Sequence record: PQ666542
Reading direction: 5' to 3' (one strand)
Length of the DNA stretch: 64,000 bases
From: Shigella phage sb4
In this document: positions 29,990-32,047 of the stretch, in pieces
Layout: each line of letters starts with the position of its first letter
How positions within the stretch are numbered: the first letter of the stretch is position 1
Program-made: the position numbers and the translations under genes
The notes under the pieces: model-generated
Database searches by the model: none
What the model saw: the letters and a program-made list of their open reading frames with translations, nothing else
What the model was told of the DNA's origin: nothing

Positions 29990-32047
29990 TTATCCTTGAA
30001 CGAACTTGTAAGGCATGTTTGTAATATCTATGCAAGACGCAATAATTCCAAGAGATGATTCTACTTTTTGTTTAACATTTGATGAAACAAATGTTGCAAA
30101 GTCAACTCTGTCTTCTATTTCAATATCACCTGTCATTGCAACTACTTCACCAGTTTCCATTAGACGGTCACCGTCATAAATTACTGATTCGGTGAGTTCT
30201 TCCGTAGTCATAACTTCAGCTTGAATAAGCTTGTTGTTAGTTTTAACTGTTCCATCATTGTAAGATGCGTCGGTTATTTTACTAACTTTGACCATTAATC
30301 CACGTGGCAAAATGACTTCCATTTCATTTGAATGCGCTAAACTTCCACCTGGTAAAACAACGTTGACTTTATCAGCCCCAGTAATAACCCATCCAATTCC
30401 AACTAAATTATCGCTAGAATTAACAAGCCCTTCATCATTTTTATCGACAGAAATATTTAGACGCTTTTCGTCTGGTAGAACCCCTACAGCTGAATCAGTC
30501 ATCCAAGTACCAAAAATGTTTGGATATAATGATGTTGATACAAAATTTCTAAAAAAAAAAACTCGATTTTTTACCATTGCTTCAGATATTGAAGGTAACA
30601 TTCTCTGTGAACGATATAAAGTGATACCCTTTGGCAGTCGATCACCATTTTTAAAGGCTGAATCTAAATTATCGATGGCTTGGTCTATTTCTGGTGCTGT
30701 TAAAATACTTGTACGTTCATCTAGATTATATAATCCCAAAAGAGCATTATCCATGTCTACATATCCTGAACCTACGTATTCAGGAATTCCACGTTTTTGT
30801 GCCGGTGTGTACTTAGACGGATCTTTATTTTCGACTATAGAATGCAATGACCATCCAACGGTAAGAGCATATCCACGTATTTCTCTTCGAATAATCTTTG
30901 TTTTTATTGCATTCCAAGAATTTTGTACTAACTCATTCGCAGCATCTTGATTTAAATGCGAATGATTGTTAATATTTCTTTCTAACCAAGCACATTTATA
31001 TTTTTCTAAATTATCATCGACTATAGAAGCAATAGTTTATAAAGTTTTTATTGAAGTAATATATTCTTTTCGTAATCTTTATAAAGATTTATTTTTTATT
31101 TATGTATTAACATCAGATTATTTATCTTCAGGAATTATAGAAGCTTCTCTGAATGCCATTCCAGCTGTAACACTATTAAGAGCATTCTCTAATGCAAATC
31201 CTGAAGTAGAAATAACAGTTAATTCATTAGCATCAGAAATTAAAGGCGCGTCAGCGGGTTTATTTAATTCTGCCGCTGACGCCTCAAATTTTTGAAACAT
31301 TGGTGTTTCAAATCTGGAAGATTCTAACGATTGACTTTGTGCAATTGCTCTACGGGAAATTTTAACTTTAACGATTACAGCTTGGTCAGAACGTTTATCA
31401 TTTTCTTGTGCAATAGATGCTGCAATTGCCTCATTTTTAGTTACTTGAGCTCCGGTATCTTTATTGATATATACATCGCCGACCTTCGATTCAACTTTAG
31501 TAAAGAGCTCGGTACTAATTTCCGGAACTCCTGGAATGTCTTCTAATGATACATTTTTGCGATGTTTAAGAATATATGCATACTTTTTATCATAGTCCCA
31601 GAGTTCCTTAAGAAGGACGTATCTGCCACCTGAACGACTACGGATAAGTCTATCAGCAATAAGTTGAATTTGACGAGCTTGACCAGCAGTTTTAGACTTA
31701 AGAATACGGAGCATGCAGGCATCAATTTTATATTGACGCATTGTTTGCATTGCAACAGTAAAAACTGAATTGATATAATTAATTGGGCTTGGACCGAGAC
31801 CTTTTAATTTAGCAATTGAACCTTTGGCAGTTAATGTAAAAGGAACAATATGCATCATTTAATCGCCCATCTTTAAATCGCGATTAGTATCACCTCCAGA
31901 TGTGTAGGTACATAAACGAAAGCCTGGTTGTTCAATTGCGTCATCAACATGAACTGAAAAAATTTGCGGTATTTTCTTCTTTGGATTTAAGTTTGTAATA
32001 GGAAGAGTAGTATCTTCGTCAAATAATTCTGTAATAAGTTCCATCAT
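29990..32047 (-). pseudogene. alt: Alt ADP-ribosyltransferase homolog interrupted by five in-frame TAA codons (31859-31861, 31118-31120, 31100-31102, 31079-31081, 31037-31039)
   Basis: ORFs 31859-32047, 31118-31858 and 29990-30847 are in the same frame; manual translation of the 30848-31117 linker shows three further TAA codons and otherwise Alt-like sequence; about 685 codons. Confidence 0.85.

Follow-up and report, generated by a model that had tools for sequence, protein, structure and literature searches.

The alt gene in the deposited genome of Shigella phage sb4 (PQ666542) is interrupted by five in-frame TAA codons, which raises the question of whether the gene is decaying, is decoded in an unusual way or has been recorded incorrectly. 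We analysed a 64,000-nucleotide stretch of the record (henceforth referred to as the window), which comes from a Tequatrovirus (T4-like) genome, and polarised its private substitutions against up to six close relatives. Premature stops were counted with the Shigella phage pSs-1 genome as gene map; that genome is 96.9% identical to the window and collinear with it across all 64 kb. The results suggest that the stops very probably belong to a technical error layer introduced while the sequence was being produced, and are not biology. The features discussed are listed in Table 1.

Table 1. Positions in the window of alt, its stops and the other affected features.
Feature	Position	Strand	Details
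1-nt deletion in gp25 (baseplate wedge, essential)	20256		frameshift; private to the window
Second full-length alt paralogue	27935..29986	-	two GAA>TAA: codons 335 and 557 (28990, 28324)
alt, T4 alt orthologue (RNA polymerase ADP-ribosyltransferase)	29990..32044	-	684 codons, five in-frame TAA; collinear with pSs-1 CDS YP_009111015.1
ADP-ribosyltransferase catalytic domain PF03496	30203..30925	-	E=5e-30; in the alt fragment past the stops
Private-change patch in alt	30994..31120		10 changes over 127 nt (eight G:C>T:A)
alt codon 336 TAA	31037..31039	-	ancestral GAA (Glu336), G>T
alt codon 322 TAA	31079..31081	-	ancestral GAA (Glu322), G>T
alt codon 315 TAA	31100..31102	-	ancestral GAA (Glu315), G>T
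alt codon 309 TAA	31118..31120	-	ancestral GAA (Glu309), G>T
alt codon 62 TAA	31859..31861	-	ancestral AAA (Lys62), A>T
Gene 30 (DNA ligase, essential)	32282..33742	-	AAG>TAG (32914), GAA>TAA (32824)
1-nt deletion in pseT (polynucleotide kinase)	41093		frameshift; absent from aligned KNP5, Ec_MI-02 and sb2
Private-change patch	43038..43140		9 changes, all G:C>T:A, C>A and G>T mixed; 3 common to sb1
rnlA, three TAA stops	43685..44809	-	stops at 44512, 44092, 44032; adjacent pair GAA GAC>TAA TAC
nrdA, five TAA stops	46530..48794	-	codons 3, 119, 125, 131, 151

The five stop codons of alt

According to the pSs-1 and T4 annotation, the alt locus lies between gene 54/alt.-3 and alt.1/gene 30. A sequence-only reading of this DNA had reported five TAA codons in alt, four of them within 90 codons, and had translated the linker between the open fragments by hand. 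Translation of the minus strand from 32047 to 29987 reproduced that linker exactly (...PEDK-stop-SDVNT-stop-IKNKSL-stop-RLRKEYITSIKTL-stop-TIASIVDD...), placed an earlier stop after ...KMGD and showed all five stops to be TAA, four of which crowd into only 28 codons (309-336). If the 47 premature stops counted in the window were placed at random, any four of them would land within 28 codons with p=0.002. With the stops read through, the full-length identity of the product is 93% to T4 Alt and 96% to its pSs-1 orthologue. T4 Alt (gpAlt, NP_049811.1) and the pSs-1 protein (YP_009111015.1) have position, full-length similarity and the C-terminal PF03496 domain in common with the window gene, which differs from them in that the single open frame of ~682-684 codons is broken by the five TAA and in ~25 private amino acid changes at otherwise conserved positions. 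Since the catalytic domain lies downstream of all five stops, its translation from the alt start codon would not be possible.

The same reading had put glutamate codons at the stop positions in T4 Alt and had taken the stops for G-to-T transversions, without proposing a cause. This holds for the four clustered stops, each of which is GAA>TAA, and not for the fifth, where a lysine codon was converted by an A-to-T change. The sense codons GAA or AAA are retained at these sites in T4, pSs-1, KNP5, sb2 and Ec_MI-02, so the different reference codons that would have undermined the claim are not seen. All other compared genomes are mutually identical over the alt patch, and between 31011 and 31125 in the window 5 of the 15 coding-strand G have become T, including those of 4 of the 5 GAA codons. 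The change at codon 322, together with a G>T at 31087, creates a perfect 16-nt palindrome, AATCTTTATAAAGATT (31074-31089).

We considered whether alt, as a dispensable and duplicated gene, could be losing one copy to pseudogene formation. The gene is non-essential in T4, the window contains two full-length paralogues in tandem, and T4 itself retains degenerate remnants of alt duplication (alt.-1 and alt.-2), all of which would suit such decay; however, the copy is intact in all close relatives, essential genes are hit at a similar stop density, and the excess of stops in alt (5 of 47 compared to 1.65 expected by length) is weak (p=0.024), with nrdA also carrying 5 and rnlB 4. We therefore regard decay specific to alt as highly unlikely. 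We also rejected an exchange between the two paralogues by gene conversion or misassembly, the only DNA similarity between them being 155 nt at 78%, N-terminal and away from the patch.

Premature stops and substitutions across the window

The 47 premature stops (33 TAA, 7 TAG and 7 TGA) are distributed over 27 of the 82 genes in the window. The essential genes affected are those for gp14, gp15, gp16, gp24, gp26, gp27, gp28, gp48 and the gp30 ligase, and their functions span the neck, terminase, capsid vertex, baseplate and DNA ligase. The stops replace 16 different sense codons (GAA, AAA, AAG, TCA, GGA, TGC, TTA, TAT, TAC, TGT, TGG, TTG, AGA, CAA, CGA and TCG). So many in-frame stops inside otherwise well-conserved genes could in principle reflect recoding or efficient suppression, with TAA, TAG and TGA all read as sense, yet several observations make this scarcely credible. 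The stops are of all three types and not of one, the codons that they replace stand for ~11 amino acids and not for one, natural stop codons still end genes, every stop site is a sense codon in relatives that are ~97% identical, and the non-synonymous changes are equally unselected. No tRNA was found in the window, the tRNA cluster lying outside it, and the source paper gives 10 tRNA genes per genome, of which nine named ones are all ordinary (PMC11993411).

The bias towards G-to-T changes had also been claimed for rnlA and nrdA, and it is present in both: the adjacent pair in rnlA lies at 44512-44507, the five nrdA stops comprise two GAA>TAA, two TCA>TAA and one TTA>TAA, and every one of the seven private changes in a patch of nrdA (48344-48439) is G:C>T:A. 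The reference-based spectrum that had been proposed as a check revealed the expected excess, with G:C>T:A making up 148 of 573 window-private substitutions compared to 43 of 543 in three clean sister lineages (7-9%; odds ratio 4.0, p=5e-16). Overall, the unselected layer amounts to ~360 substitutions, at ~0.6% of positions, together with two 1-nt deletions, and it is skewed towards A/T, with G:C>T:A at ~34%, A:T>T:A at ~26% and almost no G:C>C:G. Thus G:C>T:A forms only about a third of this layer, and A:T>T:A and A:T>C:G look unselected too.

For G>T, the proportions of synonymous, non-synonymous and stop changes were close to those expected with no selection (observed 0/60/18, expected 4.8/61/12.2), and they were 9/42/5 compared to 6.7/45.3/4.1 for C>A and 17/33/6 compared to 15.6/35.6/4.8 for T>A; those of A>C and T>G also matched random expectation. 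The exception was A>T, which was stop-rich (p=3e-5). The private transitions, meanwhile, look normally selected, with a strong synonymous bias (63/17 for T>C). Non-synonymous and stop changes together stand to synonymous ones in a ratio of 1.84 in the window, compared to 0.22-0.43 in pSs-1, KNP5 and Ec_MI-02. The GAA>TAA change is blind to the reading frame, affecting 16 of 1203 in-frame and 7 of 597 out-of-frame GAA. In contrast, A>T changes that make in-frame stops occur at 12/1616, compared to 5/3834 for the same change in that trinucleotide out of frame (p=6e-4). This higher frequency counts against an origin in error and is only partly explained by a T-A-A context preference.

The changes are also clustered (variance-to-mean ratio ~2), in patches of ~100-200 nt, and 21% of the gaps between neighbouring G:C>T:A changes are of 20 nt or less, compared to 5% expected. 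They favour A/T-rich flanks, and with respect to the immediate context of G:C>T:A, AGA is enriched (41 observed, 18.4 expected; 2.2-fold) and CGG depleted (1 observed, 4.2 expected). No phage among 50,697 records has the alleles of the window, the best identity to the alt patch being 94.8%. Since no other codon beginning with G is as common as GAA in this AT-rich genome, frame-blind G>T errors give TAA stops, and one error patch would by chance have fallen on the Glu-rich linker of alt.

Recurrence in the genomes of one study

The record derives from a four-phage study in Kolkata, in which the phage of PQ666542 is the fourth, TMC4 (PMC11993411); the sister records are sb1/ADG1 (PQ666539), sb2/AKR2 (PQ666540) and sb3/CDR3 (PQ666541). 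On the pSs-1 map, premature stops number 34 in sb1, 8 in sb3, 4 in sb2 and none in KNP5 or Ec_MI-02, so that among the genomes compared on this map they occur only in those of the one study. The three sisters resemble the window in genome type, in starting at the pSs-1 coordinate, in an unselected G:C>T:A excess, in split essential genes and in common error sites, although sb2 and sb3 are far less affected. In sb1, which has 268 private G:C>T:A changes, the genes for the terminase large subunit, major capsid protein, gp27, gp48, rnlA and nrdA are in pieces. Its layer is nearly pure G:C>T:A, near-uniform (variance-to-mean ratio 1.23) and without neighbour-base preference, whereas that of the window is patchy (2.0), prefers A/T-rich flanks and adds A:T>T:A and A:T>C:G. 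Even so, 31 G:C>T:A sites are common to the window and sb1 compared to 3.2 by chance (p=1e-21). Most of them are non-synonymous or stop changes. The two stops found in both genomes lie in Rz and nrdA. The sharing among the window, sb1 and sb2 fits no tree, even within 50-nt stretches. We rejected the idea that the window and sb1 have regional hot spots in common, since the per-bin counts of their private, unshared G:C>T:A changes are uncorrelated.

The changes could alternatively be real in the packaged DNA, as the outcome of heavy G>T or purine>T mutagenesis (by oxidised guanine, A-rule bypass of apurinic sites, a mutator DNA polymerase or a host defence glycosylase) in a largely non-viable or complementation-dependent population. 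Bypass of apurinic sites or 8-oxoG gives G>T together with A>T, and the window has this spectrum with very few changes between G and C. Some of the unselected-looking changes of the window recur in sb1, which is what inheritance would give, and the two stops that both genomes carry are in dispensable genes. However, a consensus genome cannot propagate when about ten essential genes for structure and replication carry nonsense or frameshift changes, high-multiplicity complementation cannot keep ~47 defects in 64 kb at a majority frequency, the pattern of sharing misfits a tree at the scale of 50 nt, and the patch positions in the window and sb1 are otherwise uncorrelated. We therefore consider real mutagenesis improbable. 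Its more specific form, in which the G>T and A>T changes are lesion-derived mutations that preserve one moment of purine-to-T hypermutation in vivo, in a burst population that was mostly dead, and are partly shared by co-isolated phages, appears more doubtful still; if true, the hypermutation could stem from bypass of apurinic sites or 8-oxoG after attack by a host defence, for example a DNA glycosylase.

A further possibility is that the sequence was changed after deposition, either as an in-silico perturbed control or through corruption of the consensus in downstream processing. A layer that is unselected and dominated by substitutions (~360 compared to 2 indels) is what this would produce, and exact matches to the window DNA (in viral contigs) or proteins were not found in the collections searched. 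Nevertheless, we consider it very unlikely. The substitutions are patchy and context-dependent, not uniform; the deposited sb1, sb2 and sb3 have a like defect and specific sites in common with the window; and the published ORF table already contains the same gene fragmentation (PMC11993411). In its Table 1, TMC4 has six Alt-like ORFs, three for rnlA, and two each for DNA ligase, NrdA, rnlB, td and gp14, which is the fragment pattern predicted by the stops in the window, and 291 proteins are reported for TMC4 compared to 254-255 in the cleaner sisters (PMC11993411).

The explanation by technical error rests on changes that are unselected, window-wide, frame-blind, confined to the genomes of one study and partly recurrent at the same sites, and this layer would sit atop the natural divergence of the genome. 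The stops in alt belong to a set of ~360 unselected changes. This set disrupts 27 of 82 genes, of which many are essential, and the stops are therefore almost certainly errors of a draft-quality record. The source paper describes isolated, lytic phages (PMC11993411), so the broken essential genes must work in reality, and the alt gene of the phage itself is almost certainly intact and ordinary.

Candidate sources of the probable errors and their consequences

The sequencing was reported as a Twist enzymatic-fragmentation library from 50 ng DNA with PCR, run on a NovaSeq 6000, and the account given in the source paper has the assembler picked by N50 and coverage not reported (PMC11993411). Likely routes to the errors would be template that was damaged or badly amplified in this Illumina library with its PCR and enzymatic cutting, NovaSeq base calls of low quality, or permissiveness during assembly or consensus calling. 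A single-contig 165-kb de novo assembly normally implies coverage that outvotes random read errors, which counts against the error explanation. Long-read or homopolymer error was rejected, as only two private frameshift indels stand beside the ~360 substitutions.

We compared the layer to known sequencing artefacts. It resembles the 8-oxoG artefact (Costello et al. 2013, PMC3616734) in the dominance of C>A/G>T, a non-biological origin and a severity that depends on the sample. However, the classic form of that artefact is CCG>CAG at low allele fraction, with G>T in read 1 and C>A in read 2, and arises from acoustic shearing (PMC3616734), whereas in the window CGG is depleted, AGA is enriched, the DNA was cut enzymatically and the changes are in the consensus; the classic 8-oxoG context was therefore rejected. 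The layer also resembles the artefacts of enzymatic fragmentation (Tanaka et al. 2020, PMC6941819) in recurrence at the same site across libraries, seen here in the 31 treeless sites common to sb1, and in clustered multi-nucleotide substitutions, seen here in the overdispersion and close spacing of G:C>T:A. Near-palindromes were made perfect in two clear cases (31074-31089 and 50251-50269). The gain in self-complementarity over all 42 clusters was weak (p=0.04) and the gain in stem length at single sites barely above a random G>T null, and foldback or quasi-palindrome templating appears unlikely to be the general cause. Enzymatic fragmentation can account for no more than a minority of the changes.

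In a simple model of two-colour (NovaSeq) chemistry, G would be called as T and C as A whenever a spurious green signal is added. This model accounts for the mix of G>T and C>A within a patch and for the A/T-rich flanks, and may be a possible contributor only. As the cause in its simple form it was rejected, because it predicts G:C>C:G at about half the frequency of A:T>T:A (7 compared to 105 observed) and is unable to yield unselected transitions.

Since the effect is window-wide and essential genes are struck as hard as alt, nothing is learned about alt itself. The finding has no biological importance, and its practical value lies in database hygiene and the flagging of records. At least two 'complete genome' records of one study, that of the window and PQ666539, carry ~0.5% consensus errors, with PQ666540 and PQ666541 less affected. 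Such errors cause genes to be overcounted (291 and 285 predicted proteins compared to ~255) and seed protein databases with spurious short 'Alt-like', 'ligase' and 'capsid' proteins, and the records would mislead analyses of pseudogenes, selection, codon usage and mutation spectra. For scans that work from sequence only, the case is a caution that a striking and correctly seen mutational bias can be purely technical.

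Premature stops in alt and across the window

The window is a segment of a Tequatrovirus (T4-like) genome that aligns to Shigella phage pSs-1 (NC_025829.1) as one collinear block over all 64,000 bases (96.86% identity, 1,942 mismatches, 26 gap openings). Its alt gene, the orthologue of T4 alt, is the upstream member of a tandem pair of full-length paralogues. The close relatives pSs-1 and KNP5 have this pair, as do the sb phages; at the second position T4 has only the short remnants alt.-1 and alt.-2, which its annotation traces to an old duplication of the initial part of alt. 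Translation exactly reproduced the interrupted string reported in the sequence-only reading, with five in-frame TAA codons (first bases 31861, 31120, 31102, 31081 and 31039, minus strand), all upstream of the ADP-ribosyltransferase catalytic domain (PF03496). That reading had placed the stops at glutamate codons of T4 Alt changed by G>T, which holds for four of them (Glu309, 315, 322 and 336, all GAA in T4 Alt and pSs-1) and not for the fifth, which arose by A>T from AAA (Lys62 in both). KNP5, sb2 and Ec_MI-02, a further close relative, have the pSs-1 bases at the changed positions. In its location, sequence and domain content this alt is a typical T4 Alt gene; only its broken frame sets it apart.

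The stops are a property of the whole window rather than of alt. When the 82 coding sequences of pSs-1 were projected on it, 47 premature stops (33 TAA, 7 TAG, 7 TGA) appeared in 27 genes, including virion or packaging genes (gp14, gp15, the terminase small subunit gene gp16 and the capsid vertex gene gp24), baseplate or tail genes (gp26, gp27, gp28, gp48), enzyme genes (gp30 DNA ligase, uvsW, gp59, td, nrdA, pseT, rnlA, rnlB) and both alt paralogues. Five fell in alt (1.65 expected from its length, p=0.024), five in nrdA and four in rnlB. Also confirmed were the nrdA stops and the rnlA pair GAA GAC > TAA TAC, in the two further genes where the sequence-only reading had seen the same apparent bias. 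Recoding was considered and rejected, its defining tests having failed: in-frame stops of all three types replace 16 different sense codons (GAA 18 times, AAA 8).

The genes for the tail sheath and the tail tube are separated by an intact ORF of ~215 codons that carries Cys-rich and HNH-like motifs (CDKCG...CRDCRH...HKVS...N). The window shares this ORF, a probable mobile gene for a homing endonuclease, with pSs-1 and sb2, and it is absent from KNP5 and Ec_MI-02. In the small prohead core gene, the in-frame deletion falls within a GAT-repeat tract and probably reflects natural variation of the repeat, since the length of this gene also varies in KNP5, sb1 and sb2.

Features of the window
Feature	Position	Strand	Gene or remark
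alt, upstream paralogue	29990-32044	minus	
Second full-length alt paralogue	27935-29986		
G:C>T:A patch	30926-31120		alt
G:C>T:A patch	41207-41278		
G:C>T:A patch	43038-43140		
G:C>T:A patch	44509-44592		rnlA
G:C>T:A patch	48344-48439		nrdA
G:C>T:A patch	60587-60778		
Single-G deletion	20256		frameshifts gp25; absent from all six compared genomes
Single-G deletion	41093		frameshifts pseT; absent from the three genomes aligned there (KNP5, Ec_MI-02, sb2)
Stretches with subsets in window, sb1 and sb2	8965-9043, 13693-13757, 23046-23068		
Same-strand G>T runs	8965-9055, 13693-13757, 23046-23068		beside T-runs
Clear palindromes	31074-31089, 50251-50269		
HNH-like ORF	5741-6397		
24-nt deletion relative to pSs-1	8806		small prohead core gene

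Spectrum and selection

To polarise substitutions, four close relatives were used at first (pSs-1, KNP5, sb2, Ec_MI-02) and later six (with sb1 and sb3). Counting only sites on which these six agree, 573 substitutions are private to the window. These comprised 148 G:C>T:A (26%), 105 A:T>T:A, 52 A:T>C:G, 7 G:C>C:G, 121 G:C>A:T and 140 A:T>G:C changes. The G-to-T bias suspected from the sequence, for which a reference-based spectrum had been proposed as the check, was borne out: G:C>T:A makes up only 7-9% of private changes in the clean lineages pSs-1, KNP5 and Ec_MI-02 (odds ratio 4.0, p=5e-16).

Each coding-strand substitution type was compared with random mutation of the same genes. C>A, T>A, A>C, T>G and G>T match or nearly match the no-selection expectation, and the private transitions resemble normal divergence under purifying selection. 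For every synonymous change the window has 1.84 non-synonymous or stop changes, versus 0.22-0.43 in the clean lineages.

Private coding-strand substitutions (synonymous/non-synonymous/stop)
Type	Observed	No-selection expectation
C>A	9/42/5	6.7/45.3/4.1
T>A	17/33/6	15.6/35.6/4.8
A>C	3/20/0	3.4/19.6/0
T>G	7/18/0	5.6/17.7/1.7
G>T	0/60/18	4.8/61.0/12.2
T>C	63/17/0	41.5/38.5/0
C>T	34/19/2	14.6/35.8/4.6

Our two-component estimate from these counts divides the coding part of the window into ~360 unselected and ~170 natural private substitutions. Some 360 random changes of the observed spectrum would be expected to create 36-43 stops or so; the window has 44 private ones. Against these ~360 substitution errors, the two single-G deletions are the only clear indel errors. 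GAA>TAA changes are blind to frame (16/1203 in-frame GAA, 7/597 out-of-frame). A>T changes creating in-frame stops (AAA>TAA, AAG>TAG, AGA>TGA) are 5.7 times as frequent in frame (12/1616) as out of frame (5/3834; p=6e-4), an excess for which a T-A-A context preference (one-base shifts where T-runs meet A-runs) accounts partly, not fully.

Patches and sister genomes

The transversions are patchy (variance-to-mean ratio ~2 at the 250-1000-nt scale), and several 70-200-nt stretches are almost purely G:C>T:A, with C>A and G>T interleaved. Four alt stops lie inside 28 codons (probability 0.002 under uniform placement) because in the alt patch 5/15 coding-strand G became T, 4/5 GAA codons among them. 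G>T favours A/T-rich flanks (AGA enriched 2.2-fold; flank A+T 72% versus 64% background). Alleles of the unselected layer were not found in any of 50,697 phage records searched, in which the best identity over the alt patch was 94.8%. At 50251-50269, GTTAGGCTTATATCCTAAT has become GTTAGGCTAATAGCCTAAC, a perfect inverted repeat, through three private changes (T>A, T>G, T>C) spaced over 11 nt, which also create an in-frame TAG; the pattern is a template-switch or foldback signature and could be either an artefact or a real quasi-palindrome correction.

The phages sb1, sb2 and sb3 were described together, in a study of four phages from lake water in Kolkata (PMC11993411). When one of the patches served as query, sb1 (PQ666539) proved to have some of the same odd G>T changes, and its annotation splits rnlA and neighbouring genes. 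On the same gene map sb1 has 34 in-frame stops, sb3 8, sb2 4, and KNP5 and Ec_MI-02 none. sb1 carries 268 private G:C>T:A changes (synonymous/non-synonymous/stop 26/197/29), and its deposited annotation divides the large terminase into three parts and nrdA, gp27, gp48, the tail sheath and the major capsid protein into two each; in sb3 (PQ666541) stops at codons 372 and 444 break up the same alt copy. The source paper says nothing of split essential genes in these genomes (PMC11993411). For the fourth phage, TMC4 (PQ666542; 164,971 bp), from which the window comes, it gives 291 predicted proteins versus 254-255 in the cleaner two, and Table 1 there lists six Alt-like ORFs (231-236), three for rnlA (267-269) and two each for DNA ligase (238, 239), NrdA (272, 273), rnlB (207, 208), td (276, 277) and gp14 (190, 191) (PMC11993411), the pattern predicted from the window's stops.

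The window and sb1 have 31 G:C>T:A sites in common, versus 3.2 by chance (p=1e-21); those in these two alone comprise 11 non-synonymous, 2 stop and 2 synonymous changes, and shared transitions are almost all synonymous. In three 50-80-nt stretches the window, sb1 and sb2 hold overlapping subsets that no tree fits. G>T runs occur at these places, usually with the largest set in the window. The sharing looks like a recurrent site-specific artefact or library cross-talk, not inheritance. Patch positions in the window and sb1 are uncorrelated once shared sites are set aside.

Origin and meaning of the layer

The layer is unselected and frame-blind, consists mainly of substitutions, is patchy on the scale of a read or fragment, occurs in one study only and partly recurs. 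A plaque-forming lytic phage cannot have some ten of its essential genes broken by nonsense mutations. We regard real purine-to-T hypermutation in vivo, acting on packaged phage DNA, as a very improbable source. The errors most probably arose in library preparation, sequencing or consensus building. The spectrum consists of G>T and A>T, with a few A>C, A>G and C>T and almost no G<>C; damaged template followed by PCR, a possible contributor, gives qualitatively this spectrum. A two-colour "spurious green" model, a possible contributor, covers the mixing of G>T and C>A and not the other classes.

In the source study DNA was extracted with CTAB, and a Twist enzymatic-fragmentation library made from 50 ng was amplified by PCR and sequenced on NovaSeq 6000; the assembler was picked by N50, and coverage is not stated (PMC11993411). 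The genomes of the study share their start coordinate with pSs-1, which points to reference-guided reorientation at the least. The 8-oxoG shearing artefact has a CCG>CAG signature at low allele fraction (PMC3616734), a context that the window does not show. Enzymatic-fragmentation artefacts are recurrent, multi-nucleotide and palindrome-associated (PMC6941819); the layer resembles them in recurrence and clustering, whereas palindrome perfection is clear at two places only and weak overall.

Overall, the breakage of the alt frame is almost certainly technical and not biological; with recoding also failing, it is therefore not a real biological feature. The finding has value only in flagging the quality of these GenBank records and in urging caution with sequence-only scanning.
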